Virus record (IMG/VR): IMGVR_UViG_3300045391_000819
Location: 67,722-131,721 of that record
DNA length: 64,000 nucleotides
DNA from: a virus
Reading direction: 5' to 3' (one strand)
Part shown: piece after piece, positions 50,273-64,000 of the stretch
How positions within the stretch are numbered: the stretch's first letter is position 1
Layout: each line of letters begins with the position of its first letter
The notes under the pieces: model-generated
Told to the model about the DNA's origin: nothing
The model's database searches: none
Seen by the model: the letters and a program-made list of their open reading frames with translations, nothing else
Translations under genes and position numbers: made by a program

Positions 50273-52321
50273 TTAAAAAACTCTCCTGTTTCCTGAGAAT
50301 GGACTTCCGTGCGGGCGGGTAAAAGGTGATCTAACTGATTGTTTCTTAGGTGGTTCGAAGCCTTCTGACTCTTTAACTTTAACTATTGGTGCAGTCTTTA
50401 AAAGGTGTGAATCATACGCTAACACATGTCTAAAAGCTACAATACGGTCAACGTTCTGGTCTTCACTATAGTTTAACATTTCGGTAAGAAGCATCCTATC
50501 TCTAATTCTAGTAACACCAAGCTTCTTAATCTCAACTCCTCTTTCATCAAATCCTATTATCTCTTCCAAACAGTAATCATAAAACAGTCGCATACAGTGA
50601 TTTATGACTCTTGGAACGGCTGGCAAACCTTTTGGACGGACATTGATTCCTGTATTAGGAGCTATTTCTACAAGCAGATTATAACCATCAGCAAGAAGAT
50701 GAGCTTTGTTTTTACCATCTAAATAGTCGATAAAGTTCGTACCCATATTTTCAATCATACAGGTAGCGTTGTAAAGCTCGATTAGCATCTCAGCCTGTCT
50801 ATTCCATTCCTTCATCAGTTGTGGACGGGAAGCGAAAGATGCTACAATCATGTTTTGGAATGTACCTTTAACAGGATCGTACATTCTTTTATAGATATAA
50901 AGAGTTCCTAATGAAGGAGATGTGGCAGAAACGTTCTGGTTATAAGGGTCACATCCAGCTATATAAAGAAAGTGAGGAGGATTTTCTACTGGAGGCTCAT
51001 ATATCATTATAGGAGCATCCTTCATAGTTTCAGGTTTTACTGGAAAATCCAGTATTTCCCTACGCTTAATATCTGTTTTCCAACCAATTGTATTATCTAC
51101 GTTCCTATAAAGTTCAACTGGAATGCCTACAAATCCCTGCTTTTTCTCAAGTTCATCCAGATATAAAAGATGATTTCTGATAGCTTCAATAGGGAAATCA
51201 TTTACTTCATCGCTCAAAAAGCAATCATCTGGATCAAATGGATAATACATTCGACCTTTAAGAGCAGCTCTGGGGTCATTCGCTTTCTCAAGTTTCTTTA
51301 CTTCATCGTCAGTTATCTTCTTGGCTAGTTCTTCATCGCTCTCATAGAATGTCAAACTGTTTAGTTCACTGTCCTCTGGAATCAAAATTCCTGATTCTCT
51401 TTGAATGAAATCACTAAACTTTACTTCCTTTTTAGCTTCCATTCTGTATTTACCAGACAAGAAAACTCCATACTTCTTGGCCTTTCCGGGTATCTCGACA
51501 GCTACAAAGTTATGTGCATCAGGGTTTTTAAATACCTTTTCAGCATCAGAATTAGGTTCAAATAGACCACCTGTACCTGTAAGTATAGGCACGCAACGCC
51601 ATCCTCTGGATGTAGTAAAACCCGGTTTAGCAGCTTCGTAAGCTTCTAGGAACGGTGCTTTACCCACCTCATCTATTACTAATATCTTAGGAGTAGTACC
51701 CGCAATGGCTTCTGTATTCTTACCTTCATCTAAGTTTCTTATCCAAATCTTAGACCATTCTATTCTTCGTCCACCTGTTTTTCTTTCTTTAACACCAAGC
51801 GAAACTTCCTTACGCCAGTCATCCTGAAGACGTCCGAATCTAAAATAGGGATGTAATGAGGCTAATCCTTTATCAAGTTTAGAGGCCAACACTTTAATAT
51901 CGGCTTCATTTGTAGAGCTAATTACGCTTTCTGAACCCTGATATATTGTAGCTCCTCTACCAACCCATGAGGCTTCAAAGTCTGATTTGGCAAACCTACG
52001 AGTACCAAATAGTAGAAGTCCTTTCTTTTCTTCCTCGGCTAATTTGATATATTGAGCTATAAGCCATTCATTATCTCTAAAGTGTGGCTTTCTCCATACA
52101 CGAATTTCATCGTTTGGGTTTCTAGGATCAGGTTCATCAAGATAGATGTTCCAATGGTTTAAATGCCAATACAACCAACCATGAATGTAAACTCCATCAA
52201 TGGTTAAGCCGTATCTAATCTTCTCCAATTCATTTTCAAAAAAGGGAACATACTCCTCAGAATCAGCAGTAGGAACGTCCTTAACATTTAAGAACATCTG
52301 AGGGTTGGTAATTATACTCAT
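50273..52321 (-). CDS. terL: Terminase large subunit
   Basis: Walker A-like GTRRFAKS, Walker B LVIDEVG, nuclease IAGCDPY and DRIVA motifs. Confidence 0.92.
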   Translation of the reverse strand: MSIITNPQMFLNVKDVPTADSEEYVPFFENELEKIRYGLTIDGVYIHGWLYWHLNHWNIYLDEPDPRNPNDEIRVWRKPHFRDNEWLIAQYIKLAEEEKKGLLLFGTRRFAKSDFEASWVGRGATIYQGSESVISSTNEADIKVLASKLDKGLASLHPYFRFGRLQDDWRKEVSLGVKERKTGGRRIEWSKIWIRNLDEGKNTEAIAGTTPKILVIDEVGKAPFLEAYEAAKPGFTTSRGWRCVPILTGTGGLFEPNSDAEKVFKNPDAHNFVAVEIPGKAKKYGVFLSGKYRMEAKKEVKFSDFIQRESGILIPEDSELNSLTFYESDEELAKKITDDEVKKLEKANDPRAALKGRMYYPFDPDDCFLSDEVNDFPIEAIRNHLLYLDELEKKQGFVGIPVELYRNVDNTIGWKTDIKRREILDFPVKPETMKDAPIMIYEPPVENPPHFLYIAGCDPYNQNVSATSPSLGTLYIYKRMYDPVKGTFQNMIVASFASRPQLMKEWNRQAEMLIELYNATCMIENMGTNFIDYLDGKNKAHLLADGYNLLVEIAPNTGINVRPKGLPAVPRVINHCMRLFYDYCLEEIIGFDERGVEIKKLGVTRIRDRMLLTEMLNYSEDQNVDRIVAFRHVLAYDSHLLKTAPIVKVKESEGFEPPKKQSVRSPFTRPHGSPFSGNRRVF

Positions 52322-52853: not shown

Positions 52854-53232
52854 TCATTAATTCTTGAAGTTTATCAACAATTTCTTGATTCATGTAAGCC
52901 CAATTTTCTTCTGAACCATAATTATATCCATAACCTCTTACAAACATTATATTACCTGTGGTATGCGTTATCTCATGGAACAGGTGTTTATTTTTATCTT
53001 CCACCCACATATAATAGACTTCATCGTGTTTGGGGGGATTATAATTAACATATACAGAGTAACCATCTGTACTGTGCATATCCTTTACATATACTCTTTT
53101 GTCCCAACTCCATAAGGATGGTATACGACCATTGTATCTTTCTCTCAAGAACTTCTTAAAGTCATCAATATGTCCTCCAATGGCAACACACACGCAAGCG
53201 TGATAGTTAACCTCGAACTCATATATCTCCAT
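52837..53232 (-). CDS. Hypothetical protein with HExxH motif
   Basis: LFHEITH, then E.WAYM. Confidence 0.5.
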   Translation of the reverse strand: MEIYEFEVNYHACVCVAIGGHIDDFKKFLRERYNGRIPSLWSWDKRVYVKDMHSTDGYSVYVNYNPPKHDEVYYMWVEDKNKHLFHEITHTTGNIMFVRGYGYNYGSEENWAYMNQEIVDKLQELMNADRN

Positions 53233-53504
53233 TAATTTGTAGTTTCTTCTAATTCCGTTGATGTTAATTCACGGTCAAGCTCATCTTTATAATCTTCAAA
53301 TTTCTTTAGTAGTTTCTCATCAGACCAGAAATACGGGTCTTGTACGTCACCTTTTCTTCTAAAGACATGGAGAATATGTTGAGCAATAGAGTATTGAGGA
53401 TATTCCTGAACAATCTTCATAATGTTATAAAACACTTGTTCCTCAATCTGCTTCTTTCTCTTGTCAATTGGTTTTGTTGTCATTTTGTTCTTTTTTGTAA
53501 ACAT
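53232..53504 (-). CDS. Hypothetical protein
   Basis: ORF track; the true start may be the second Met. Confidence 0.55.
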   Translation of the reverse strand: MFTKKNKMTTKPIDKRKKQIEEQVFYNIMKIVQEYPQYSIAQHILHVFRRKGDVQDPYFWSDEKLLKKFEDYKDELDRELTSTELEETTN

Positions 53505-53847
53505 CCCATTTCAAAGGAATTTGTTCATTGGGGTGTTTTTTATTGTAAATTTCTAGTCCACATTTTTCAGATAATGCTGCTGTTTTTCTATCTAATGTAC
53601 AGCCACAGTGTATGCAATGTTCATCAAATCTATCTGTTTTATAATTTATAGCCGGATTAGCTGCTGCATTACTGCTTGAAAAAGGACAAACGGAACATAT
53701 AACTCTACGTCTAATAATTTCATTCTGTTCATCTTCTGGCAAAGTTCCAAACTTCATCTTCACCAAATTAATCTGACCTTCAACTATTTTATCTCCATCC
53801 TTTACGGCTTTCGGTATAAGTTTCAAGTATTCCAAAAAGGCGCTCAT
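53464..53847 (-). CDS. Cys-rich (Zn-binding) hypothetical protein
   Basis: CxxCP...CxxCGC...C pattern. Confidence 0.6.
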   Translation of the reverse strand: MSAFLEYLKLIPKAVKDGDKIVEGQINLVKMKFGTLPEDEQNEIIRRRVICSVCPFSSSNAAANPAINYKTDRFDEHCIHCGCTLDRKTAALSEKCGLEIYNKKHPNEQIPLKWDVYKKEQNDNKTN

Positions 53848-54209
53848 ATTTTGGCTTTACTCCATTTTCTTTTATGTGTAAAATACGAATTAGCTATCTC
53901 GTTTCTACGTTCTAATAATCTTTTTAATTTTGTATATAATCTTATCCTAGTCTCTTCTCTCACATCTGGTTTGTAAATATTATCTAAAGTCCTTATATTC
54001 TTTATAATTACTTTTATTTCCTTTCTAAGTTTATGTCTACTTACAGCAATCGTTCCAAAGTTTTTTATAAAGATAGCGTTATAATTGGCTTCAGATAGAT
54101 TTCTCTTCACACCATTTTTCCAGAAATAGGCATTAACCTCTTTAACAATCTTCAAGTCCTTGCCTAATTTTTCTGCCGTTGCTTTATTAAAGTAATCAGG
54201 CGTTTTCAT
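53844..54209 (-). CDS. HU/IHF-like DNA-binding protein
   Basis: Basic; IFIKNFGTIAVS resembles the HU/IHF 'I.GFG.F.V' motif. Confidence 0.55.
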   Translation of the reverse strand: MKTPDYFNKATAEKLGKDLKIVKEVNAYFWKNGVKRNLSEANYNAIFIKNFGTIAVSRHKLRKEIKVIIKNIRTLDNIYKPDVREETRIRLYTKLKRLLERRNEIANSYFTHKRKWSKAKI

Positions 54210-54550
54210 TAACTATTATCTATCTGTATCAACATCCCAACTTTTACATCGAGAGTTAGATTTATATTCTCGTTAATCAAATATTCCTTTCTTCTACCTG
54301 CTGACTTCTTTATTAAACCTACTCTACTTAGCTTAGATATTGCATTCTTTAGAGAGTCTTCATTAAATATTTCGCTTTTAATAATGAGGTCTTTGGTCTC
54401 TTGCGTAATCTTATATACTAAAAAATAGGCAAGAACAGTCAACTCCGATTCAGAAAGTTTAATTTCTGATAAAAGGCAAAAAATCTTAAGCAAAGTCTTA
54501 GCCTGCTCGATCTTCGATTTAGTTTTCTTTACAACTTTAACGAGCTGCAT
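54209..54550 (-). CDS. Winged-helix-like hypothetical protein (start corrected to MQLVKVVK)
   Basis: The ORF-track start (54793) runs through tRNA genes. ATG at 54550 follows the 54580-54611 promoter. LKNAISKLSRVGLI is wHTH-like. Confidence 0.6.
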   Translation of the reverse strand: MQLVKVVKKTKSKIEQAKTLLKIFCLLSEIKLSESELTVLAYFLVYKITQETKDLIIKSEIFNEDSLKNAISKLSRVGLIKKSAGRRKEYLINENINLTLDVKVGMLIQIDNS

Positions 54551-54579
54551 TAGTTGGTTTTTATTAATTGATTCTGAAG

Positions 54580-54611
54580 CAAATATAATAAAAAAAGCTG
54601 AACTTACCAAA
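54580..54611 (-). promoter_or_regulatory. Bacteroidota sigma-A promoter (start of the morphogenesis operon)
   Basis: TTTG-N20-TATATTTG. Confidence 0.8.
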
Positions 54612-54656
54612 TCCATAAGGACTTGATAATCAGCTTTAACAATATTATAACGATTG

Positions 54657-54729
54657 CGTGCATGGAAGGAATCGAACCCACAACCTTCGGTTTTGGAGAC
54701 CGCTGCTCTACCAGTTGAGCTACACACAC
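54657..54729 (-). tRNA. trnW: tRNA-Trp(CCA)
   Basis: Cloverleaf; anticodon loop CT-CCA-AA; G73. Confidence 0.92.
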
Positions 54730-54735
54730 GTTTAG

Positions 54736-54811
54736 AACTCCCTGTCTGATTCGAACAGACACACAACTCTGGTTCGTAGCCAGAAGCACTCATCCATTAT
54801 GCTAAGGGAGC
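54736..54811 (-). tRNA. trnR: tRNA-Arg(ACG)
   Basis: Stem TCTGG/CCAGA, loop CT-ACG-AA. Confidence 0.9.
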
Positions 54812-54853
54812 AAGATCACCAGCATTTTCTCCAATTAAATTACCCGTTGGGTT

Positions 54854-54878
54854 AGAACGAGTTAGGATTCGAACCTAA
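54854..54878 (-). pseudogene. Orphan tRNA T-arm plus acceptor 3' strand
   Basis: TTAGG-TTCGAAT-CCTAA-CTCGTTC with no D or anticodon arm upstream. Confidence 0.5.
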
Positions 54879-54890
54879 AAGACTGGCGTG

Positions 54891-54965
54891 GGTGACTAAT
54901 CGGGATCGAACCGATACTCCTCTGCGTCACAGGCAGATACTTTAACCGTTTAAGCTATAGCCACC
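54891..54965 (-). tRNA. trnH: tRNA-His(GTG)
   Basis: Loop CT-GTG-AC; encoded G-1:C73 pair. Confidence 0.93.
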
Positions 54966-54970
54966 ATATG

Positions 54971-55043
54971 TTGCCTTGTTACGATTCGAACGTAAGTCGT
55001 CTGTTTCAGAGACAGAAATGTTTGACCGCTACACTACAAGGCA
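54971..55043 (-). tRNA. trnQ: tRNA-Gln(CTG)
   Basis: Loop CT-CTG-AA; T1:A72. Confidence 0.92.
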
Positions 55044-55046
55044 GTG

Positions 55047-55117
55047 TTCCCCTCGACAGACTCGAACTGCCACTTAGAAGCTTCAAAGGCTTCTGTGCTG
55101 CATTACACTAAAGGGGA
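55047..55117 (-). tRNA. trnQ: tRNA-Gln(TTG)
   Basis: Stem GAAGC/GCTTC, loop CT-TTG-AA; T1:A72. Confidence 0.88.
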
Positions 55118-55120
55118 GTG

Positions 55121-55196
55121 TGTGGATGATAAGAATCGAACTTACTTCAAGTCACGGAGCTTCAATCCGCCGCTATACCATATCAGCTACATCCAC
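55121..55196 (-). tRNA. trnF: tRNA-Phe(GAA)
   Basis: Stem GCGGA/TCCGT, loop TT-GAA-GC. Confidence 0.88.
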
Positions 55197-55532
55197 ATAT
55201 TTTAAAAAGTCTTGCTCATATCTAGTAGTATGTTCTAATCTATGACAATTAGCACATAATAATTCACATTTGTTTATTTCTTCCAACAAGATTTTCCAAG
55301 ACTTATGAGATACATTCCCTATGTTAAAACTTTTTGTAGATTCATCTTTATGATGAAATTCCAAAGCACCGGGATGATTATATCCACATTTTACACATTT
55401 TCCGCCAAGAAGATTTATAGCTTTAATCTTATTTCTATATCTTCTTATTTTGGTATTACATGAATGACAGCGTGTTCTATGACGTAATTGAAGCTGTCTA
55501 AATTCTCTTTTACAAATTTTACATATATCCAT
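55173..55532 (-). CDS. HNH homing endonuclease 1 (stop codon inside tRNA-Phe)
   Basis: CxxC N-terminus, LGGKCVKCGY...LEFHH...KCELLCANCHRLEH. Confidence 0.88.
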   Translation of the reverse strand: MDICKICKREFRQLQLRHRTRCHSCNTKIRRYRNKIKAINLLGGKCVKCGYNHPGALEFHHKDESTKSFNIGNVSHKSWKILLEEINKCELLCANCHRLEHTTRYEQDFLKYVDVADMV

Positions 55533-55536
55533 AATA

Positions 55537-55568
55537 CAAATATACGAAAAATTTTTGGTAATACCAAA
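55537..55568 (-). promoter_or_regulatory. Sigma-A promoter of HNH-1 (probably leaderless mRNA)
   Basis: TTTG-N20-TATATTTG; ATG only 4 nt downstream. Confidence 0.8.
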
Positions 55569-55582
55569 TTTGTTCTACCAAG

Positions 55583-55657
55583 AGCCTCTGGTCAGCCACG
55601 ATCTGACACTCCTCTGTTTACAAGACAGGAGCTTTACCTTCTTAAGCTACATGAGGC
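55583..55657 (-). tRNA. trnT: tRNA-Thr(TGT), atypical (possibly degenerate)
   Basis: Loop CT-TGT-AA; T-loop ATCGTGG instead of TTCRA; bulged A in the acceptor stem. Confidence 0.6.
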
Positions 55658-55695
55658 ATTTGACGGTGTTTATTGAGCTTTTCCGTCAGCTCTCG

Positions 55696-55771
55696 TCGGG
55701 ATGGCTGGATTCGAACCAGCGCATTCATGGCTCCAGACCACGTCGGAACAACCTGACTTCCGTACATCCCG
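55696..55771 (-). tRNA. trnP: tRNA-Pro(TGG)
   Basis: C1:G72, A73; loop TC-TGG-AG; canonical T arm. Confidence 0.9.
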
Positions 55772-55776
55772 ATAAC

Positions 55777-55801
55777 AAAAAACCCTCGAAGAATCGAGGG
55801 C
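55777..55801 (-). terminator. Attenuator C terminator
   Basis: GCCCTCGA-TTCT-TCGAGGGT followed by TTTTT, about 5 nt before tRNA-Pro. Confidence 0.88.
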
Positions 55802-55829
55802 TAACAATTTATGCAGATTTAAAGTTCAC

Positions 55830-55916
55830 TTATCTAAGTGTATCACCATCACGCATAGTTAGCCCTATCCCTGTGGGTTGGGTAAACCAAAAACGTGTAT
55901 GTTGAAACTTTATCAT
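55830..55916 (-). CDS. Leader peptide C, MIKFQHTRFWFTQPTGIGLTMRDGDTLR (28 aa)
   Basis: Manual translation. Codons 4-15 are all F/Q/H/T/R/W/P, the amino acids of the downstream tRNA block. Confidence 0.9.
   Translation of the reverse strand: MIKFQHTRFWFTQPTGIGLTMRDGDTLR
55858..55866 (-). promoter_or_regulatory. Antiterminator strand C
   Basis: AGGGCTAAC is a perfect 9-bp complement of GTTAGCCCT (55797-55805), which overlaps the terminator 5' arm. Confidence 0.82.
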
Positions 55917-55986
55917 TTTAAAAGAGGAATCCTACTTATTTCACCTATCGGCATAACCTGCGATATACGCATTTCAGATTCGAGAA

Positions 55987-56018
55987 CAAACTTACGACAA
56001 TTTTTTGAAATCACCAAA
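55987..56018 (-). promoter_or_regulatory. Sigma-A promoter of tRNA block C
   Basis: TTTG-N20-TAAGTTTG. Confidence 0.85.
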
Positions 56019-56052
56019 TTTATTTTGGGATTTTAACAAAAATTGATTATTG

Positions 56053-56121
56053 TGGGGCAGGAAGTACTCGAAACTTCGGGTTTGCGTTTTACAGACGTTA
56101 CCATTGCCCTGATTCTACCCC
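56053..56121 (-). tRNA. trnY: tRNA-Tyr(GTA), highly atypical
   Basis: Acceptor GGGGTAG/CTGCCCC and a normal T arm. CTGTAA loop has an irregular stem; short D arm; no long variable arm. Confidence 0.55.
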
Positions 56122-56127
56122 ATATAG

Positions 56128-56213
56128 CGGAGAGCATTGGATTCGAACCAATGGGCCGATTTCTCGACCACAGTTTAGCAAACTGCTCTAATTGACCACT
56201 CTAGCAGCTCTCC
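56128..56213 (-). tRNA. trnS: tRNA-Ser(GCT)
   Basis: Loop TT-GCT-AA; long variable arm; G73. Confidence 0.92.
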
Positions 56214-56216
56214 GGT

Positions 56217-56303
56217 TGGCGGTGGGAACAGGATTCGAACCTGCACAGCTGTTACACCTTCATGGTTTTCAAGACCAATAAGCCCTCTCTAATGCGTCCC
56301 ACC
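56217..56303 (-). tRNA. trnS: tRNA-Ser(TGA), CCA encoded
   Basis: Loop CT-TGA-AA; long variable arm; G73-CCA; unusual D arm. Confidence 0.85.
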
Positions 56304-56308
56304 GAATG

Positions 56309-56382
56309 TCCCTCTGACTGGTCTCGAACCAGCACTATACAGATTTTAAGTCTGCTGCGTCTCCCAATTGCGCCACAGAGGG
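56309..56382 (-). tRNA. trnL: tRNA-Leu(TAA), short variable loop
   Basis: Loop CT-TAA-AA; Leu-type D arm GGCGCAATTGGGAGACGC; A73. Confidence 0.9.
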
Positions 56383-56386
56383 TTAG

Positions 56387-56460
56387 TGCCGATGACAGGG
56401 GTCGAACCTGCGCAGTACTGCTTCTAAGGCAGTTGTGTCTCCCAATTGCACCACATCGGC
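56387..56460 (-). tRNA. trnL: tRNA-Leu(TAG), short variable loop
   Basis: Loop CT-TAG-AA; A73. Confidence 0.9.
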
Positions 56461-56463
56461 TTG

Positions 56464-56537
56464 TACCTGTAGAGGGTCTCGAACCCACACCTTATAGTTT
56501 TTGAAACTATTGCGTCTCCCAATTGCGCCATACAGGT
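56464..56537 (-). tRNA. trnL: tRNA-Leu(CAA), short variable loop
   Basis: Loop TT-CAA-AA; A73. Confidence 0.9.
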
Positions 56538-56539
56538 AT

Positions 56540-56573
56540 AAAAAAGAAAACCCCCCAGTTTTTAGCTGGAGGG
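56540..56573 (-). terminator. Attenuator B terminator
   Basis: CCCTCCAG-CTAAAAA-CTGGGGGG followed by TTTTCTTTTTT, abutting tRNA-Leu(CAA). Confidence 0.9.
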
Positions 56574-56603
56574 TCAAGTTAAATCCCGTAGGATAAAACA
56601 TCT

Positions 56604-56672
56604 TTACATACCACTTCCAGCTCTCAGTTCACTGAGATAATACAGACTGGAATATGATAAGCAATTTTTCAT
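56604..56672 (-). CDS. Leader peptide B, MKNCLSYSSLYYLSELRAGSGM (22 aa)
   Basis: Manual translation. Codons 5-14 are all L/S/Y, the amino acids of the downstream tRNA block. Confidence 0.9.
   Translation of the reverse strand: MKNCLSYSSLYYLSELRAGSGM
56616..56622 (-). promoter_or_regulatory. Antiterminator strand B
   Basis: AGCTGGA is the 7-bp complement of TCCAGCT (56564-56570) in the terminator 5' arm and loop. Confidence 0.78.
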
Positions 56673-56782
56673 TTTGATTTCTGGAATAGTTCTTTTACTT
56701 TTGTAAATACCCAAGTCAATGCGTCGATGATGGGTTCTTTAAAGAAAGCACCAATAACAGCACCAATTAATAGGTTAATCAT
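56669..56782 (-). CDS. 37-aa putative membrane peptide MINLLIGAVIGAFFKEPIIDALTWVFTKVKELFQKSK
   Basis: Manual translation; hydrophobic N-terminus; its TGA overlaps the ATG of leader B (ATGA). Confidence 0.7.
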   Translation of the reverse strand: MINLLIGAVIGAFFKEPIIDALTWVFTKVKELFQKSK

Positions 56783-56812
56783 AATTTATAAGGTTTAATT
56801 AAAAAACGAATG

Positions 56813-56844
56813 CAAATATACGGAAAATTTCTGAAATTACCAAA
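56813..56844 (-). promoter_or_regulatory. Sigma-A promoter of tRNA block B
   Basis: TTTG-N20-TATATTTG. Confidence 0.85.
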
Positions 56845-57688
56845 TTCTTCCTCTATTTTTTATTTTTCTATATCTAACTGCTTCATCTGCAAGGTTTCGC
56901 ATCATAGTTGGATTCCTTGTAGCCTTGTGATATTCATTGGCAAGTCTCTCATTTATTCTTGCGTGAGTCTGGCCTTCCCATATTCTAGTCGTATAATCAC
57001 GGCCTACAAATGGATGCCATAGATGGAAGATACAACCTCTTTTAGTCTTGTGTTTACCGTACAAGGTATCAAGTGCTCTAAGCAAAGCTACATCCTCACC
57101 ACCCCATCCTACAAATCTTTCGTCAAAACAGCCAATCGCTTCATAGGCTTCTCTTGGAAATATCATAGCCATAGCTCCATATCTGTGTCCATATCTGCTC
57201 TTATCCCTATGATCGCTTAACATATGATCTTGTGGATGACATATAATGCGTACAGGACATTCAGGTACTGAAGCTAAAATATCCTCAGTTATACATCTAT
57301 TCAAACGATACAAATGACGATAAGGAACGAACCATAAATGCTTGTCAAGATTTTCTAATATCTTATCTGCACATGATTCTACTATGTGACCGGGCAGGTA
57401 AGCATCAGCATCAAGGATAGCTATAACCCTTCCTCTTGATTTTCTAACAGCATCATTAAGGGCTTCACCCTTACAAAATACTCTACCTCTGGAGCGTCCC
57501 ACAACAATTTCTGCTTGTGGAAGTTCAGCTCTCCAGTATCTCATTAGCCACTGAAAGGCTGCTAGTCTCCAAGGATCAGTAGAAGAAAAAGGGATTATAA
57601 TGCTTATTTTCGGTCTTTTTCTAAATATTCTTCTCCTATCTCCTAGTAAAAATTTTCTTAATCTCTTCAAAAACGTCAAAGATTTCAT
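56837..57688 (-). CDS. Glycosyltransferase, GT2/GT7-like
   Basis: ISIIIPF, ILDADAY (DxD), GCFDERFVGWGGEDV. Confidence 0.88.
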   Translation of the reverse strand: MKSLTFLKRLRKFLLGDRRRIFRKRPKISIIIPFSSTDPWRLAAFQWLMRYWRAELPQAEIVVGRSRGRVFCKGEALNDAVRKSRGRVIAILDADAYLPGHIVESCADKILENLDKHLWFVPYRHLYRLNRCITEDILASVPECPVRIICHPQDHMLSDHRDKSRYGHRYGAMAMIFPREAYEAIGCFDERFVGWGGEDVALLRALDTLYGKHKTKRGCIFHLWHPFVGRDYTTRIWEGQTHARINERLANEYHKATRNPTMMRNLADEAVRYRKIKNRGRIW

Positions 57689-58364
57689 GTTGTTTGTCTA
57701 TTATAATGTTTCTATCAATAAGTTGGGTCACGCCAATTTCAAGCTTAACACCTAAGCTTGCGCTATAATCCAACCATTTAAACAATCCACCCTCTTGGTG
57801 GGAGTGACTTAACATTCTTGGTGAGATTTCAATTCGTCTTGGGATATTAAAAGCATCAGCTAAAACAATCCCATGTAAAGACGAACTGACAATTTTCTTA
57901 CATTTTCCTATCTCGCTTATTACCTTCAGCGGATCGTCTGATACCCTAATTATCTTAGGGTTGTATTTTAGAAAGGTAGGATTTTTTTCAAGGGTTTTAT
58001 CTGTCCAATGCGGAACAAGTCCTAGGTCATATTGTTTATCTTCAATTTTGACAAGCTCATCAGCAAGCAGACCGGGATCACCTAATACAAAATTGCCCTT
58101 TAATCCTTTTGCAGTTAATGGCCCACGTAAGGCCAAAATCTTTGCATAAGGTAAGTCCAATTTTGTATTTTCATGCAGTTTACCAGCACCAGCAATTACT
58201 CCATCCCAATATTTTGGCAAATGTTCAAGGATAGAACCGATAACTACTAACTCTGCATAATCTGGATCAGTCCACTGAGAATCCAATCCTGTAAATCGCT
58301 TTATCAGCAAGGAAGAAAGCAAATCGCCAAAATTTCTTTTCGCTTGCCAATAGTATAATCTCAT
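57636..58364 (-). CDS. Polysaccharide pyruvyltransferase family protein
   Basis: NFGDLLS, GSIL, ALRGPLT, GDPGLL, GLVPHW, IVSSSLHGIVLADAFNIP. Confidence 0.88.
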   Translation of the reverse strand: MRLYYWQAKRNFGDLLSSLLIKRFTGLDSQWTDPDYAELVVIGSILEHLPKYWDGVIAGAGKLHENTKLDLPYAKILALRGPLTAKGLKGNFVLGDPGLLADELVKIEDKQYDLGLVPHWTDKTLEKNPTFLKYNPKIIRVSDDPLKVISEIGKCKKIVSSSLHGIVLADAFNIPRRIEISPRMLSHSHQEGGLFKWLDYSASLGVKLEIGVTQLIDRNIIIDKQHEIFDVFEEIKKIFTRR

Positions 58365-58439
58365 CGTCGTTCGTTAAACTTTTAGTAAAGTTACTAATAA
58401 ATGAGATAGGTTCAAAATAGATAATTATTTTTGATGACA

Positions 58440-58895
58440 TTATAAGCGACATAAGTGGTCAGCAGCTTTCGCTGCTATCATGTCGTCTGGCTTTATTCTA
58501 GTCTGGTATCCTAGTGAGTTTGCCCATCCTGTCAAAGCAGGAATCAAGTTAGTAGATTTTGTAATCTTTTTATTGTTATAGTCAAACTCTAATGCTTCGA
58601 TCTTCAATGGAATTTCAGCCACTATCATTTCAGCACACTCAATTGTAAGTTCTCCTTCTTTCCAAAGTCTAGTAAAGATGTCACGGATTCTTGGAATACG
58701 CTGTTTCAAATAGATGTAGTGAGCACCACGCTGTCCGTAACGGAATACAATAGCTGTTACAAATACTGACTTTCCCCCATAATTTTGTGAATCGGTTGCT
58801 ATGTAAATCTTTAGATTGTCCTGTTTGACTTGTTCCTGACAATGTTCTATTACATTTACAAGACCTCCCTCTTCTGTCTTGAAGTACTTTTCCAT
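58440..58895 (-). CDS. RNase H-like protein, YkuK/DUF458 family
   Basis: IYIATDSQ, RLWKE, EFDYN, IKPD..IAAKAADH. Confidence 0.8.
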   Translation of the reverse strand: MEKYFKTEEGGLVNVIEHCQEQVKQDNLKIYIATDSQNYGGKSVFVTAIVFRYGQRGAHYIYLKQRIPRIRDIFTRLWKEGELTIECAEMIVAEIPLKIEALEFDYNNKKITKSTNLIPALTGWANSLGYQTRIKPDDMIAAKAADHLCRL

Positions 58896-58907
58896 TGGTT
58901 TTTATTG

Positions 58908-58981
58908 TGGAGGTGATGGGATTCGAACCCACCCCAAGTTGCTTGCAAAGCATCTTCGCCAACCATAGGCCATGCACCCCC
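58908..58981 (-). tRNA. trnA: tRNA-Ala(TGC)
   Basis: G3:U70; loop TT-TGC-AA; A73; unusual D arm. Confidence 0.88.
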
Positions 58982-58985
58982 GTAG

Positions 58986-59058
58986 TGCTCATACTAAGAC
59001 TCGAACTTAGACTCACCTGAGTATCAGTCAGGTACTTTAACCATTAAGCTATATGAGC
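58986..59058 (-). tRNA. trnI: tRNA-Ile(GAT)
   Basis: Stem CCTGA/TCAGG, loop CT-GAT-AC. Confidence 0.93.
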
Positions 59059-59061
59059 ATG

Positions 59062-59134
59062 TGCTCCTACTCGGACTCGAACCAAGACTCTTGTGGATAT
59101 AAGCCACCTGCTTTCACCGTTAAGCTATAGGAGC
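59062..59134 (-). tRNA. trnI: tRNA-Ile(TAT)
   Basis: Stem GTGG/CCAC, loop CT-TAT-AT; body paralogous to the adjacent Ile(GAT). Confidence 0.88.
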
Positions 59135-59296
59135 GAGATTATGATCTTTAATGGCTTTCTCAAGTCTTTTGTTCGCTTTAATCAATTCCGAGATAGATTT
59201 GAAAGTTCCAAGCTGTCTCAAAACCTCTATGTCATCTACTTCCAAAATCGCCATATAACCTTTAAATTTTCTTTCTTCCGCAGTGATTTGTAGCAT
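59120..59296 (-). CDS. 58-aa hypothetical protein (start corrected; stop inside tRNA-Ile(TAT))
   Basis: The ORF-track start overlaps tRNA-Asp. ATG at 59296 follows the 59320-59350 promoter. Confidence 0.55.
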   Translation of the reverse strand: MLQITAEERKFKGYMAILEVDDIEVLRQLGTFKSISELIKANKRLEKAIKDHNLAPIA

Positions 59297-59319
59297 CTTT
59301 CCCACTTTTACATGATTCT

Positions 59320-59350
59320 CAAATATACATAAGTATACCGTATACCCAAA
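59320..59350 (-). promoter_or_regulatory. Internal sigma-A promoter
   Basis: TTTG-N19-TATATTTG. Confidence 0.7.
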
Positions 59351-59393
59351 TAGGGATACGCCAGCGAATAGTATAAGAAATATCCAAAACAAG

Positions 59394-59470
59394 CCGTGAG
59401 CAAGGGGTTCGAACCCTCCTGATTGTACTCCGTGACAGGGAGACGGCCACTCCAAGCAGCCCCGCCCACG
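59394..59470 (-). tRNA. trnD: tRNA-Asp(GTC)
   Basis: Loop CT-GTC-AC; G73; starts immediately after the stop of the 59471..60838 gene. Confidence 0.9.
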
Positions 59471-60838
59471 TTATTTTATTTTTCTCCAAACTCTATTGTG
59501 AACGATATTAAATAGGTGTTCATATTGATCGTGATTAATTCCGGGTGGTAAAAGTTCATCCACTCCATCACAAACAGATTGAATACCTCTAAAATATCCC
59601 CAAGGCATCGGAAATTTACATGCCGAATCATCTATAACCAGATAGCCTCCAACTTTGAGCAAAGGCCCATAGTTTATAATGTCACTCTGAACGCAGGATT
59701 TCGCATGACAACCATCTATATATAGAATATCCAACAGTAATCCGCTTGCGCTTTCTATAACTTTGGGATCAGTTGAATCTCCTTTCAGTATAATATAATC
59801 AGCCCAGATATTAAACTGGTCATGAATCTTTCTTATATCTGCTTCATAATCACTTTCCCAATTTATTTCAGCAGGCGATAAAGGCGTCACCCCGTATCGC
59901 ATCACTGATTTTCCAGCTAAATTTGCTAGCATACCAATCAGTGAAAGAATTTGACCTCTGAATACTCCGATTTCTAAGAAAACAAAATGTTCAGGCATCT
60001 TATCTACCAATAACTTCCACATCCATTGAAAACTACGTTCTCCAAATCCCCAAGCATTCTGTTCAACCCAATCTCTGTGTGCCTTTAATTCTGGTGAATT
60101 ATTGACCTTCTTTTTAAAAACATCATTGGTTTTAACATTGTATTGCTCAGTAGGCTGCCACAGTTTTATTACTTCATCTATAGAATTATATTCATCATCA
60201 AGTAAATCAATGATCTTAGTCATATCCGTCCTTCCGTTACCATGAATTATAGAAGGTTCGGTTCCAGTATTCTTGTTTATCAATCTACCACTCTTATATT
60301 CAAATTCACCTTCCGCTATAAATGAATAACATTGAAATATCTCGCAGTTATAATCTAAAGTTATATTACCCTTTAGAAATACGTTTGTAAAGAAGAGTTG
60401 GTCATCATCTGCATATCCTACTGAGTATTCTTTAAGTAAATTCAAGAACTTTTCAATAGGAGCCATATAACTACCTGAGTTTAAATACTTATATAAGGAT
60501 TCATTTTCAGGATAACTATTTGCCAAGGTTGGATCAGGCCAGCAATTCTTCTCAGTCGAAAATACTATTTGGTCTTGGAAACGAGCATCATAGATTTTCT
60601 CTATATTCTCCAATCCGTCTAAGAATATTACATCATAAGCATCTACGAAAATAAAGTGAGTGTAGCCTGCAAGTAATTTCAAATATTGTTGTAATAATAT
60701 TATCTTAGTTCCAAATCCCTTCCATCTGCTTTTTTTACCTAAAATTACTAGGTCTATACCTTTGCGTTCTAAACTATATTTTAATCTATCAAGTCCTTCA
60801 TCTTCCTTAGTTGCTACAGTAATTACTACAGTTCTCAT
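59471..60838 (-). CDS. PLOD/LH3-type glycosyltransferase domain fused to a class I SAM methyltransferase
   Basis: N-terminus VITVAT...W.GFG.KI..L...FVDAYDV...FSTEKNCWPD...YLNSG...DDDQLFFT...LD...IFQ...HGNG. C-terminus FLEIGVFRG...ILYIDG.H...D...Y..LLK.GG..V.DD. Confidence 0.88.
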   Translation of the reverse strand: MRTVVITVATKEDEGLDRLKYSLERKGIDLVILGKKSRWKGFGTKIILLQQYLKLLAGYTHFIFVDAYDVIFLDGLENIEKIYDARFQDQIVFSTEKNCWPDPTLANSYPENESLYKYLNSGSYMAPIEKFLNLLKEYSVGYADDDQLFFTNVFLKGNITLDYNCEIFQCYSFIAEGEFEYKSGRLINKNTGTEPSIIHGNGRTDMTKIIDLLDDEYNSIDEVIKLWQPTEQYNVKTNDVFKKKVNNSPELKAHRDWVEQNAWGFGERSFQWMWKLLVDKMPEHFVFLEIGVFRGQILSLIGMLANLAGKSVMRYGVTPLSPAEINWESDYEADIRKIHDQFNIWADYIILKGDSTDPKVIESASGLLLDILYIDGCHAKSCVQSDIINYGPLLKVGGYLVIDDSACKFPMPWGYFRGIQSVCDGVDELLPPGINHDQYEHLFNIVHNRVWRKIK

Positions 60839-61449
60839 GGTTTATATTGATACAGAGCCTTCTTGTCCCTTTTCTCAACTATCTTAAATCCTATATTAAG
60901 TAGGTAATCTTCTATCTTTTGATGGTCATAATATACATCCTGTGTACTTACATCATCAAAACAAAAACAAGCTCCTTCGTTTATTCTAGTCTCGAAAAAT
61001 TGTACTTCCTTAAGAATTGCTTCTACTGAATGTGGCCCATCAAAGTTTACAAACGAATACTTATCAACTAACTTTCTACTAATACTATATACAGGAATCC
61101 CATCTTTATAATAATCAAAAAAATCCAAATCACTCATATTAATGAAAACGAAATGAACGTTCTTATGATTAGCGTATGGATAAAGTAACTGCAAACAATC
61201 AGCCTTCATCGCTTCTGTATAATCCAATCTAACAAAATGATTCTGCTTATGTTCATAAAGCACTGAACCATATGGGTCTATAGCAACTGCTATTTTATTC
61301 GGACAATGACGATGGATAGAATCTATTATCTCTTTGGTTCCACCTCCCATCCTAAGACCTATCTCTAAACAAGCTCCTTCAGTATCTTTGCTTAACTGTA
61401 CTCCTTTATATACTAAGTCGTAATCCCAACTGTCGCCGTGTAGTTTCAT
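60835..61449 (-). CDS. Class I SAM-dependent methyltransferase
   Basis: CLEIGLRMGGGT, AIDPY, FVNFDGPH, FCFDD. Confidence 0.82.
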   Translation of the reverse strand: MKLHGDSWDYDLVYKGVQLSKDTEGACLEIGLRMGGGTKEIIDSIHRHCPNKIAVAIDPYGSVLYEHKQNHFVRLDYTEAMKADCLQLLYPYANHKNVHFVFINMSDLDFFDYYKDGIPVYSISRKLVDKYSFVNFDGPHSVEAILKEVQFFETRINEGACFCFDDVSTQDVYYDHQKIEDYLLNIGFKIVEKRDKKALYQYKP

Positions 61450-62210
61450 TTAAAAGGATTATAGTAAATAGATTGTTTTCCTTCTCTGTAACCTCTTAAA
61501 ACTTTGTGATACTCTTGCCATTGTTCGCCAGCATGATTCTCCTTCCAAGTTTGATATGGTGTACCACCTGCATCTATATGGTCAATATCTATATAAGGTA
61601 GAAACACGTTTATAAAACCAGCGAGCTGACTTCTGACTGATGCAAGTGAATCATCAAATCCGTAAAGTCTAGGTTGATAAAGGTATCCAATTTTGTCAAG
61701 CAATGCTGATGAATACATTTGACATGTTCCCATAACATGATTGACTTTCTCTGCTACCATCCATTTTTCACCCGGTTTATGTGGAAGCATTATGAGTTCT
61801 GATTTGTAAAAATCTGTACGCTCTGGTGATTCCCATAAGTCTTTCCTTTTAAGTCCAACCTGTCCAATTGTAGGCTCTCTTCTAATAGCTTCTTCCATTT
61901 CATCCACCCAATCATAACTATTAACTATTACATCATTATCCATTTTAATACAATTCTCACCTTCTTTACGAAACTTCCAAGCTCTATTTATTGCTTCTGC
62001 TGTTCCAATGTTATGTCCATTTATTAGAATAGTTGCATTAGGAAAATCATGATATAATTGTTTGGTTTCATCACAAGAATTATTATCTATTATAAATATT
62101 CTATGTTTGTGATAATCAATTCTGTCAAAGAGCGATTCTAATGTGCGTCGTGTATATTCCGTCCGTTTATTCTCTTCGGTATCATACACAGCCATTGCAA
62201 TTAATGCCAT
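61446..62210 (-). CDS. Glycosyltransferase family 2
   Basis: IIDNNSCD, NIGTAEAIN, KMDNDV (DxD), YGFDD. Confidence 0.85.
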   Translation of the reverse strand: MALIAMAVYDTEENKRTEYTRRTLESLFDRIDYHKHRIFIIDNNSCDETKQLYHDFPNATILINGHNIGTAEAINRAWKFRKEGENCIKMDNDVIVNSYDWVDEMEEAIRREPTIGQVGLKRKDLWESPERTDFYKSELIMLPHKPGEKWMVAEKVNHVMGTCQMYSSALLDKIGYLYQPRLYGFDDSLASVRSQLAGFINVFLPYIDIDHIDAGGTPYQTWKENHAGEQWQEYHKVLRGYREGKQSIYYNPFK

Positions 62211-62223
62211 TGGTTTTATTTAG

Positions 62224-62296
62224 TACTCCCAACCAGATTCGAACTGGTGTTCTAAGCTTGAAGGGCTTCTGTCCTCGACCACTAGACGATAGGAGC
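62224..62296 (-). tRNA. trnE: tRNA-Glu(TTC), C at position 33
   Basis: Glu-type D arm (GTCTAGTGGTCGAGGAC); stem AAGC/GCTT; loop CC-TTC-AA. Confidence 0.85.
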
Positions 62297-62302
62297 AATT
62301 AG

Positions 62303-62375
62303 AGCGGAAAGAGAGAATCGAACTCTCATGTCCAGTTTGGAAGACTGGTGTAATCAGCCATTATACGACTTCCGC
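62303..62375 (-). tRNA. trnG: tRNA-Gly(TCC)
   Basis: Stem CCAGT/ACTGG, loop CT-TCC-AA; U73. Confidence 0.93.
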
Positions 62376-62452
62376 TGCTTACGGTTTTACACCCACTAGC
62401 AGATGGGTGCTGTGCTGCCACACTCTAGTTGCTAAACCGAAAAAAGCACTCG
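62376..62452 (-). ncRNA. Structured spacer RNA 3' of tRNA-Met with HDV/theta-like helix order
   Basis: GTGCT/AGCAC, CGGTTT/AAACCG and CACCCA/TGGGTG helices; no obvious catalytic C. Confidence 0.35.
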
Positions 62453-62523
62453 TTGCGAGGGATGGAGTTGAACCACCCCAAAACAAAGTTATGAGCCTTG
62501 TCGGGCCACCGGGCCTCCTCACA
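62453..62523 (-). tRNA. trnM: tRNA-Met(CAT), truncated D arm
   Basis: Loop CT-CAT-AA; T1:A72; T-loop TTCAACT. Initiator vs elongator identity is uncertain. Confidence 0.75.
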
Positions 62524-62704
62524 ATATTCTTACACCTGTATCAATAGTCCAAAGGATTATCTTACCTTCTCTTACATTCTCTAAGAGTTTTTTAAGCTCA
62601 TAGACTGAGTCTTTAAGAGGTAGGGATGAAAGCCAGTGTATTAGCTTATCCCTATTTCCTTTGTACTTTACTATACTTGCAACCTTTACTTTAGGTTCTT
62701 TCAT
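62519..62704 (-). CDS. 61-aa hypothetical protein (stop inside tRNA-Met)
   Basis: ORF track; fills the gap between the tRNA-like RNA and tRNA-Met. Confidence 0.55.
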   Translation of the reverse strand: MKEPKVKVASIVKYKGNRDKLIHWLSSLPLKDSVYELKKLLENVREGKIILWTIDTGVRIL

Positions 62705-62705
62705 G

Positions 62706-62857
62706 CTGTAAGGGTAGGATTCGAACCTACATGTGGGGATTCAAATAGATACACAAGATTTTTTACCATTAGTGGTCAACCCGATTATATCTATTCTATT
62801 TCACCATTCCACGCCCCTGAGACAAAGGGGTGCGTCTGCCAGTTTCGCCACCTTACA
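62706..62857 (-). ncRNA. 152-nt tRNA-like RNA with an 83-nt variable-arm insertion
   Basis: Acceptor TGTAAGG/CCTTACA, Leu-like D arm, CCCCT-TTGTCTC-AGGGG arm, perfect T arm GTAGG-TTCGAAT-CCTAC. Confidence 0.75.
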
Positions 62858-62864
62858 ATTTTCG

Positions 62865-62936
62865 CTGGAGTGGAGAATTTCGAAATCTCAACCTAATGCT
62901 TAACAGGCAATTGCTCTCCCTTTGAGCTACACTCCA
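62865..62936 (-). tRNA. trnN: tRNA-Asn(GTT)
   Basis: T1:A72, G73; loop CT-GTT-AA. Confidence 0.9.
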
Positions 62937-63319
62937 TTATGATGTTCTTTTCTATGACAATTTGCACACAAAACTACGCACTTGTCAATTTCTTTTAATA
63001 ATCTTTTTCTTCCCCATGTTGCCATACCGCCCACCTGAAAATCTTTTTTACTTGGATCAACATGATGAAACTCTAAACAAGCAATATGCTTTTCTCCACA
63101 TCTCTCACAGGCTAAATTTCTTTTAAGTTCTCTAAACCATTCTTTTAATCTGTGGTTACTTTCTCTGGCTTTATCTATATACTTTTGTTTATTCTTTTGA
63201 TAATGTTCTCGTATATAAATTTTTCTACACTCTTTGCACATTGATTGGAAACCATTTCCTTTCCTATGGAAATTTGTTTCATTTTTTGGTAGATGACATC
63301 TTATACATATTCTTTCCAT
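62927..63319 (-). CDS. HNH homing endonuclease 2 (start corrected to MERICIRC; stop inside tRNA-Asn)
   Basis: CxxC...CxxC N-terminus, CERCGE..ACLEFHHVDP..K.F...KCVVLCANCHRKEH. The ORF-track start overlaps tRNA-Arg. Confidence 0.88.
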   Translation of the reverse strand: MERICIRCHLPKNETNFHRKGNGFQSMCKECRKIYIREHYQKNKQKYIDKARESNHRLKEWFRELKRNLACERCGEKHIACLEFHHVDPSKKDFQVGGMATWGRKRLLKEIDKCVVLCANCHRKEHHNGV

Positions 63320-63323
63320 AAAA

Positions 63324-63355
63324 CAAATATACATAAAATATTCGAAACTACCAAA
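63324..63355 (-). promoter_or_regulatory. Sigma-A promoter of HNH-2 (probably leaderless mRNA)
   Basis: TTTG-N20-TATATTTG; ATG 4 nt downstream. Confidence 0.8.
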
Positions 63356-63372
63356 TATTTTAGAAACTTTCG

Positions 63373-63445
63373 AAGAGCTGATGTGAGTCGAACACATATT
63401 CTTTGCTTAGAAGGCAAGAGTCCTCATCCATTAAACGACAGCTCC
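63373..63445 (-). tRNA. trnR: tRNA-Arg(TCT)
   Basis: Loop CT-TCT-AA; canonical T arm. Confidence 0.88.
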
Positions 63446-63448
63446 ATG

Positions 63449-63523
63449 TACATCTGAGTAGATTCGAACTACTGGTCTCCCACTTGTAAGGAGGGCGCTT
63501 TCAACCAACTAAGCTACAGATGC
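63449..63523 (-). tRNA. trnV: tRNA-Val(TAC)
   Basis: Loop CT-TAC-AA; T-T mismatch in the anticodon stem. Confidence 0.9.
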
Positions 63524-63585
63524 GTTTGCTGACTTTGACGTACGTACGCAAGTGTTATTCGTCAGCAATATTCCACTCGTCAATG

Positions 63586-63660
63586 AGGACAGGGAGGGAT
63601 TCAAACCCCCGACTTTACTGCTTTGCAGGCAGTTGCATTCAATCACTCTGCCACCTGTCC
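63586..63660 (-). tRNA. trnC: tRNA-Cys(GCA)
   Basis: Loop CT-GCA-AA; U73. Confidence 0.92.
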
Positions 63661-63663
63661 ATG

Positions 63664-63737
63664 TGCTCCGACTCGGACTCGAACCGAGAACCTTCTCCTT
63701 AAGAGGGAGTAGCTCCACGCAATTGAGCTATCGAAGC
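63664..63737 (-). tRNA. trnK: tRNA-Lys(CTT)
   Basis: Loop CT-CTT-AA. Confidence 0.9.
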
Positions 63738-63740
63738 GTG

Positions 63741-63815
63741 TGCACTCGGAGGGCATCGAACCCCCGACCCCAAGATTAAAAGTCAAGTACTCTACCAAAA
63801 CTGAGCTACGAGTGC
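63741..63815 (-). tRNA. trnK: tRNA-Lys(TTT)
   Basis: Loop CT-TTT-AA; stem CTTGA/TCTTG has two T-T mismatches. Confidence 0.88.
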
Positions 63816-63845
63816 AAATAAAAAACCCTGCTTGTTCAGCAGGGC
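63816..63845 (-). terminator. Attenuator A terminator
   Basis: GCCCTGCT-GAACA-AGCAGGGT followed by TTTTTATTT, directly abutting tRNA-Lys(TTT). Confidence 0.9.
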
Positions 63846-63875
63846 TTCAGTATTTTCAGTAAAATGACTATGTTG

Positions 63876-63968: not shown

Positions 63969-64000
63969 TTTCTGCTGTTTTGTAAATTTGGACTGCAAAC

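Follow-up and report, generated by a model that had tools for sequence, protein, structure and literature searches.

A tRNA array in three blocks in a soil crAss-like phage

We analyzed a stretch of 64,000 nucleotides (the window), which is the right-hand 64 kb of a complete viral contig of 131,721 bp with 69-bp terminal repeats. The contig is the genome of a soil crAss-like phage. It encodes a major capsid protein of the crAss type (PF23898 Crass_capsid, 106.6 bits where the cut-off is 27). It has promoters of the Bacteroidota type (TTTG-N20-TAnnTTTG) and is contained in several soil and rhizosphere metagenomes. Within the window, 27 tRNA genes are located on the minus strand (54656-63815). 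ARAGORN called 25 of these, and the other two, Ser(tga) (56220-56304, minus strand) and Tyr(gta) (about 56043-56117, minus strand), were missed at default settings; once they are added, the array covers all 20 amino acids. The genes fall into three blocks, A, B and C, each with its own leader. Block C and the two HNH-like open reading frames (ORFs) found in the array are as follows.

55695-55771, minus strand: tRNA-Pro(tgg), first tRNA of block C
55582-55657, minus strand: tRNA-Thr(tgt), block C
55173-55532, minus strand: HNH-like ORF of 119 amino acids between tRNA-Thr and tRNA-Phe, with its own promoter at 55537-55568
54656-55196, minus strand: tRNA-Phe(gaa), Gln(ttg), Gln(ctg), His(gtg), Arg(acg) and Trp(cca), block C
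62927-63397, minus strand: second HNH-like ORF, inside block A, with its own Bacteroidota promoter

The HNH-like ORF of block C overlaps the 5' end of tRNA-Phe and is 54% identical to that of block A over a CxxC...HH...CANCH core, including the CxxCH motif. These two paralogous ORFs are probably homing endonucleases. The related loci L101 and L022, described below, have no ORF at the position of the block C copy, and this insertion is presumably recent. Since this ORF has its own promoter, the tRNAs from Phe to Trp (six of the eight) may be transcribed in this phage in a way that bypasses the switch proposed here.

Block B, with Ser(tga) and Tyr(gta) included, consists of three Leu, two Ser and one Tyr tRNA, which are the class II tRNA types. 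Its tRNAs with the Leu anticodons taa, tag and caa (window positions 56308-56537, minus strand) are each only 75 nt in length and lack a long variable arm, which is typical of bacterial tRNA-Leu. Similarly short Leu-anticodon tRNAs are present in L101 and L022, while the Leu tRNAs of the relatives L102, L105, L025 and L103 are 81-87 nt. The Leu codons of leader B suggest that the 75-nt tRNAs are read as Leu. Upstream of leader B, a hydrophobic ORF of 37 amino acids (56669-56782, minus strand) ends in ATGA, overlapping the leader B start codon. Its counterpart in L101 is 45 amino acids long (3552-3689), and the L101 leader B start at 3682 lies inside it, so translational coupling of the hydrophobic ORF to leader B is possible. 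Block A contains glycosyltransferase and methyltransferase genes (a PLOD-type glycosyltransferase fused to a methyltransferase, and a GT2; 59471-62210, minus strand) between tRNA-Glu and tRNA-Asp. Because of this position they could be co-transcribed behind attenuator A.

Leader C contains the parts of a transcription attenuator

The region between block B and tRNA-Pro contains a promoter, a short leader ORF and an intrinsic terminator, together with segments that can pair in alternative ways.

55987-56018, minus strand: Bacteroidota sigma-A type promoter, TTTG (56018-56015), 20 nt, then TAAGTTTG (55994-55987)
55917-55981, minus strand: 5' UTR of ~65 nt, transcription start inferred
55830-55916, minus strand: leader ORF of 28 codons plus TAA (ATG at 55916), encoding MIKFQHTRFWFTQPTGIGLTMRDGDTLR
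55872-55907, minus strand: sensor run of 12 codons (ORF codons 4-15), F Q H T R F W F T Q P T (FQHTRFWFTQPT)
55875-55901, minus strand: region 1, 5' arm of the 1:2 hairpin in the predicted fold, within the sensor codons
55852-55866, minus strand: region 2, AGGGCTAAC plus TATGCG, forming either the 3' side of 1:2 or the 5' strand of the 2:3 antiterminator
55797-55815, minus strand: region 3, TGCATA (55815-55810) plus GTTAGCCCT (55805-55797), pairs with region 2
55775-55802, minus strand: intrinsic terminator, AGCCCTCGA-TTCT-TCGAGGGTT plus U-tract, from terminator scan and fold

Promoter motifs of the same kind head leaders A and B and both HNH-like ORFs. The terminator scan placed a GC-rich hairpin of 9 pairs at 55802-55781, followed by TTTTTTG, and only 4 nt separate the end of the terminator from tRNA-Pro. 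The promoter is located ~205 nt upstream of this strong terminator with no gene between them, an arrangement that is sensible only if termination is conditional. No terminator-like site was found from tRNA-Tyr (about 56043) to the promoter, in line with the earlier note on this DNA, which had reported no terminator between block B and the promoter. The same note had described a 5' UTR with a small TGCG-TATAT-CGCA hairpin. This hairpin is present (55971-55959), in a UTR of ~65 nt, but the UTR hairpins are not conserved in relatives.

The sensor codons read TTT CAA CAT ACA CGT TTT TGG TTT ACC CAA CCC ACA. All 12 are cognate to block C, all seven specificities are represented, and no other amino acid occurs among them, which bears out, at the positions originally given, the claim that the sensor covers the seven specificities of the eight downstream tRNAs. 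A six-frame scan of the 131,721-bp genome found no other run of {P,T,F,Q,H,R,W} as long as this one and no other run of that set with all seven amino acids, which excludes chance as the source of the sensor. In the same scan, leader A was the only run covering its 11-amino-acid set, and leader B tied for the second-longest Leu/Ser/Tyr run. Contig pieces recovered over leader C from four soil or rhizosphere runs were identical, with zero variants there.

Leader C RNA is predicted to adopt two mutually exclusive folds

The RNA from the ATG to the U-tract has a minimum free energy (MFE) of -41.3 kcal/mol (z -3.40), and none of 200 shuffled sequences was as stable. The MFE and centroid structures agree on a long imperfect 1:2 hairpin followed by the terminator (regions 3 and 4). 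In this hairpin, which was absent from the account in the earlier note, the sensor codons (about 55901-55875) are paired with the ORF segment that follows them, region 2. We also folded the RNA without region 1, to mimic a stalled ribosome, and without region 4, as not yet transcribed. This RNA forms the 2:3 antiterminator at -26.7 kcal/mol (z -3.62), in which region 2 (55866-55852) pairs with 55815-55810 and 55805-55797 in a helix of 9 + 6 bp. A perfect 9-bp pairing had been noticed before and is real, AGGGCTAAC (55866-55858) being the exact reverse complement of GTTAGCCCT (55805-55797) and the pairing overlapping 6 nt of AGCCCTCGA, but the antiterminator is longer than had been stated. Because the 2:3 helix and the terminator 5' arm have 6 nt in common, the two structures are predicted to exclude each other, as the note had proposed.

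The 2:3 core duplex of leader C has an energy of -15.7 kcal/mol against a shuffle mean of -9.1 (p about 0.014-0.016). The corresponding duplexes of leaders A and B have energies of -16.5 kcal/mol (p 0.036 against shuffles) and -10.5 kcal/mol (p 0.27), respectively. Leader C thus has the cleanest 2:3 helix among the three leaders of the window and deserves its earlier description as the clearest of the switches. As modeled, leader C shows the classical four-region logic of 1:2, 2:3 and 3:4 pairing, with the 1:2 hairpin making termination the default state. A hairpin similar to 1:2 is also predicted in L101, L025 and L102. When ribosome footprints were simulated, the truncated RNA of L022, L025 and L102 preferred the 2:3 pairing even without a ribosome, so that equilibrium folding alone cannot settle the default state.

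The leader layout is conserved in related loci

In order to find relatives, we used the neighboring glycosyltransferase, which has many homologues with 55-65% identity in public assemblies, and fetched the contigs. Six glycosyltransferase-linked loci (L022, L101, L025, L102, L105 and L103) share the tRNA blocks and all three kinds of leader with this phage. L132 and L134 were added by a metagenome scan for the terminator/tRNA-Pro junction, which brings the C-type leaders, including that of this phage, to nine. At L024, L100 and L104 there is no tRNA array close to the glycosyltransferase. The leader-bearing L022 and L103 carry P22_portal, and L024 and L104, which have the glycosyltransferase and no nearby tRNA array, carry Crass_capsid.

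Megablast against GenBank phages gave single-tRNA matches only, tblastn with the neighboring glycosyltransferase did not find a close cultured relative, and a close relative is absent from GenBank phages and IMG/VR. An exact back-translated sensor pattern had 0 matches in IMG/VR, and a promoter-type pattern retrieved other Bacteroidota phages with tRNAs there, none with a convincing leader. The array of 23 tRNAs in Bacteroides phage crAss001 has no leaders of the attenuator type. In IMG/VR, the relatives identified by glycosyltransferase (all <60% identity) have tRNAs mixed among protein genes with neither leader nor terminator, which indicates that the element is clade-specific.

The promoter motif is located directly upstream in all five C-type leader regions examined. 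The 5' UTRs of the relatives' leaders range from about 0 to 75 nt. In L101, L025 and L103 the ATG is 4 nt past the -7 box, so these transcripts are near-leaderless (three of the seven C-type leaders from this phage and its glycosyltransferase-linked relatives). Each of the relatives' leaders precedes a GC hairpin with a U-tract that ends a few nucleotides before the first tRNA.

The pairing potential is conserved as well. In 9/9 C-type leaders, including L132 and L134, for which the terminators were located by hand, complementarity exists between a segment 0-12 nt past the sensor and either the 5' flank or the 5' arm of the terminator. The helix pairs differ by lineage, with GGGCTAA/TTAGCCC, TCTGTAGG/CCTACAGA, TGGAGGT/ACCTCCA, GAGGGG/CCCCTC and TTGAACGGGG/CCCCGTTCAA all found. 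The nine duplexes have energies between -6.8 and -23.9 kcal/mol, while the means for shuffled sequences lie between -2.5 and -11.3 kcal/mol. Combined by Fisher's method, p against shuffles is 2e-10, but some loci are related and not fully independent. Between the leader ORFs of this phage and L101, the sensors differ by two synonymous changes (CGT/CGC and CAA/CAG) and one in-frame insertion of a Gln codon, a pattern that fits a translated frame.

Some further features were observed in the relatives. Many leaders of L025, L103, L102 and L105, of any type, share a C-terminal motif of DIDLG, DDNWG or DDNYG followed by the stop codon, an ending not found in the leaders of this phage. The shared motif could be a common RNA element or a nascent-peptide feature. 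A tmRNA gene (Rfam RF00023) is located among the tRNA blocks of L102 (12688-13071, 68.5 bits) and L105 (13316-13738, 59.6 bits). In addition, L105 contains a Pro-like tRNA after leader C (8428-8508) with an apparent enlarged anticodon loop of about 9 nt, for which neither ARAGORN nor Rfam made a call.

Leader codons follow the tRNA content of the downstream block

The C-type sensors and the tRNA blocks behind them are given below.

This phage: sensor FQHTRFWFTQPT; block Pro Thr Phe Gln Gln His Arg Trp
L101: sensor QHTRFWFTQQPT; block Pro Thr Phe Gln Gln His Arg Trp
L022: sensor F(I)HTRFWFTPQPQ; block Pro Thr Phe Gln Gln His Arg Trp
L025: sensor TFTTRFWHQPTQP; block Pro Thr Phe Gln His Arg Trp
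L102: sensor RFTCQQHTQPTP; block with Cys, Trp apart, beyond two protein genes
L105: sensor RFTCPQHTQPTP; block with Cys, Trp apart, beyond two protein genes
L103: sensor FTWHNTPDTFNPQ; block with Asp and Asn, without Arg(acg)
L132: sensor HQPQPQHQ; block Pro Pro His Gln His Gln Gln
L134: sensor QLPQQHL; block Pro Gln His Arg Leu(tag)

Changes in block content are accompanied by changes in the leader. In L102 and L105, where tRNA-Trp is detached and tRNA-Cys is part of the block, W is absent from the leader and C is present. The C-type leader of L103 has lost R and contains D and N, and Arg(acg) is now located behind an Arg-rich A-type leader. The block of L132 has only Pro, His and Gln tRNAs, and its sensor encodes only these residues. 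In 7/7 arrays (this phage and its glycosyltransferase-linked relatives), each of W, R, C and D occurs in the leader exactly when its tRNA occurs in the contiguous block. Across codons 2-17 of 21 leaders from nine loci, 234 of 336 codons (70%) match the leader's own block, compared with 74 of 544 (14%) for matches to another block of the same phage, and the own-block value was never reached in 20,000 shuffles of blocks among leaders. The only block specificities missing from their leader are the detached Trp (and Met beyond the start codon) of L102 and L105. The A-type leaders are less exact, with extra residues, and those of L102 and L105 keep a Cys codon although tRNA-Cys is in another block.

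The correspondence extends to isoacceptors. All six C-type leaders ahead of Arg(acg) encode Arg by CGT, CGC or CGA, the sensor of A-type leaders before Arg(tct) uses AGA, and the L103 leader ahead of both Arg tRNAs contains both types of Arg codon. In L134, CTC and CTA occur ahead of Leu(tag).

A leader-peptide attenuator is proposed to control tRNA synthesis

We are fairly confident that leader C is a ribosome-mediated (leader-peptide) transcription attenuator that controls a phage tRNA block, although all evidence for this is in silico. The parts, the predicted alternative pairings, the conservation of layout and the co-variation of leader and tRNAs were each established by sequence analysis, and the attenuator reading put forward in the earlier note gains support from the full set of sequence hallmarks, from eight other loci and from this co-variation.

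In the proposed mechanism, host RNA polymerase would start at the Bacteroidota-type promoter and a ribosome would translate the 28-codon leader. With plentiful aminoacyl-tRNAs for Phe, Gln, His, Thr, Arg(CGN), Trp and Pro, the ribosome would clear the sensor, region 1 would pair with region 2, and the 3:4 terminator would form and stop transcription 4 nt before tRNA-Pro. Should any one of the seven tRNAs be scarce, the ribosome would stall on the sensor and cover region 1, leaving region 2 to pair with region 3 (9 + 6 bp); no terminator would form and polymerase would enter the tRNA genes. The block C tRNAs are therefore probably made only when ribosomes decode the sensor codons slowly, and the switch amounts to OR logic over seven specificities, with stalling inferred. 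Since the products are the tRNAs whose shortage caused the stall, the circuit would be a negative feedback on tRNA supply. That the leader is translated, that ribosomes stall on it, which way the switch works and what physiological signal it answers to are all inferred, without expression or ribosome data.

Several points count against this account or make it less simple, among them the extra promoter inside block C, the folds of some relatives that prefer 2:3 without a ribosome, the looser A-type leaders and the leader-free tRNA arrays of crAss001 and of more distant IMG/VR relatives. Two details of the layout do so as well. The stop codon (55832-55830) is between regions 2 and 3, so a terminating ribosome leaves region 2 uncovered, unlike in E. 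coli trpL, where the terminating ribosome covers region 2, and termination must rely on the 1:2 hairpin re-forming. The last sensor codons (Pro and Thr) are 6-11 nt from region 2, and a ribosome stalled there would be expected to partly mask the antiterminator strand.

The attenuator could work as described and yet respond to amino-acid starvation (uncharged tRNA under nutrient limitation) rather than to tRNA supply, in which case phage tRNA output would be tuned to host physiology with no feedback on tRNA abundance. The classical attenuators trpL, hisL and ilvL are starvation sensors, and leader-peptide attenuators respond to the level of aminoacyl-tRNA, which cannot separate lack of an amino acid from lack of its tRNA. 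However, extra tRNA brings no relief from amino-acid starvation and the loop would be without benefit. The codons moreover follow the isoacceptor, with Arg CGH or AGA chosen according to the downstream Arg tRNA and Leu CTN placed before Leu(tag) in L134. This isoacceptor-specific choice favors feedback on tRNA supply over plain amino-acid sensing, and we regard starvation as an unlikely signal.

It is very unlikely, in our judgment, that the small ORF is non-regulatory, that the hairpin is a leaky constitutive terminator or an element for pre-tRNA processing or stability, and that the codon match is incidental. Short ORFs are frequent in AT-rich DNA, many are listed here, and there are no experimental data to set against this possibility. 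Nevertheless, the sensor run is unique in the genome, the layout recurs in eight other loci where the leader follows tRNA content through at least three rearrangements, and synonymous changes and the insertion of one whole codon preserve the reading frame, while a promoter placed directly before a constitutive terminator would be purposeless.

A translation-independent switch, with tRNAs or a protein bound by the leader RNA itself as in a T-box, is scarcely credible even though codon triplets could in principle serve as specifiers and the alternative helices exist irrespective of translation, since positions 53000-64000 have no T-box or other Rfam match beyond tRNAs and chance matches, the matching triplets lie in one frame from ATG to stop in every homologue with indels of whole codons, and we know of no precedent for twelve different specifiers in a single RNA.

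Leader C compared with known regulatory systems

A cmscan search of positions 53000-64000 with E up to 0.1 returned only tRNA-clan matches and weak chance matches to plastid UTRs. The covariance models for the T-box and for curated Rfam leader families (Trp_leader, His_leader and others) had no match in the same interval. The closest likeness of design is to the enterobacterial attenuators. As in ilvGMEDA (Ile/Leu/Val), thr (Thr/Ile), trpL, hisL, pheL and leuL, a promoter-proximal short ORF is rich in regulatory codons. Both systems have four RNA segments in which 1:2 and 3:4 exclude 2:3, both end in an intrinsic terminator, and both would read a ribosome stall as aminoacyl-tRNA shortage, with sensing of several amino acids possible. 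Of the features expected of such attenuators, leader C meets all the structural ones (ORF, cognate codons, terminator, 2:3 and 1:2 pairing). The feature not met is control of amino-acid biosynthesis, transport or synthetase genes; leader C instead precedes eight tRNA genes, so that the output is the sensed molecule itself. Leader C also has seven specificities (leader A has 11), mostly with 1-3 codons each, whereas the enterobacterial leaders have long runs for 1-3 amino acids, and it is phage-encoded with a Bacteroidota promoter.

Leader-peptide control of a component of the translation apparatus is known from the pheST attenuator of E. coli (pheM leader). Leader C likewise targets the translation apparatus rather than a biosynthetic enzyme, but pheST is a cellular gene for an aminoacyl-tRNA synthetase and responds to one amino acid, while leader C is a phage element that would control tRNAs and respond to seven. 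T-box riboswitches, like leader C as proposed, sense tRNA status and choose between terminator and antiterminator. They differ in that tRNA is bound by the RNA itself with no ribosome involved, through a single specifier, and in that the controlled genes are synthetase and amino-acid genes. The polycysteine short-ORF attenuators of mycobacteria are also reported to be codon-specific sensors for downstream genes (bioRxiv 10.1101/834739), and their leaderless ORFs resemble the near-leaderless L101, L025 and L103 leaders; unlike leader C, they respond to one amino acid and control protein-coding operons.

A comparable layout is found in Caulobacter phage phiCbK, which contains small ORFs and annotated terminators ahead of tRNA blocks. 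In one case, MSKTYRQFVRQIQVVRNIR... is followed by an annotated terminator and then by Phe Val Ile Ile Val Gln Gln. This layout equals that of leader C, whereas lineage, host and promoter type differ. In the phiCbK genome paper (PMC3556154), the terms 'attenuat' and 'leader' never occur. Full-text literature searches gave no description of leader-peptide control of tRNA genes. Attenuation by leader peptides is textbook knowledge for enzymes, transporters and synthetases but is not known to us for tRNA genes, and the computational results support leader C as a known attenuation mechanism acting on a new kind of target.

Implications for phage tRNA genes

We lean, if only slightly, toward a broader interpretation in which phages carry a codon-resolved homeostat of tRNA supply. 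Three attenuators would split the 20 amino acids over three tRNA blocks, sense shortage at the level of isoacceptors and provide replacement tRNAs on demand, an arrangement that would recur in unrelated lineages (crAss-like and phiCbK-like). If this is true, the shortage could stem from host tRNA decay after shut-off, from codon-usage mismatch or from anticodon-nuclease defenses, and recurrence in unrelated lineages would point to a general and so far undescribed layer of phage translation control. Since what is sensed is also what is produced, the control of the phage over tRNA abundance would be direct.

The reasons for tRNA genes in phage genomes, and the timing of their use, are a matter of long debate. 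The element described here suggests that expression of phage tRNAs is conditional on decoding trouble, tying it to host tRNA depletion and possibly to anticodon-nuclease defenses. The leader may also serve as a key to tRNA identity, as it shows which codons are expected for odd tRNAs such as the 75-nt Leu-anticodon tRNAs, and the attenuator could act as a compact synthetic multi-input reporter of translational capacity.

The apparent presence of a comparable element in phiCbK makes bench work feasible in a cultured phage. According to its genome paper, a Tyr tRNA is encoded by no phiCbK-like phage (PMC3556154). Directly before the tRNA-Phe of phiCbK, at 51540-51625 (L182), there is a tRNA-like sequence, not listed by an Rfam search, which has a long arm and whose anticodon loop carries GTA (Tyr).
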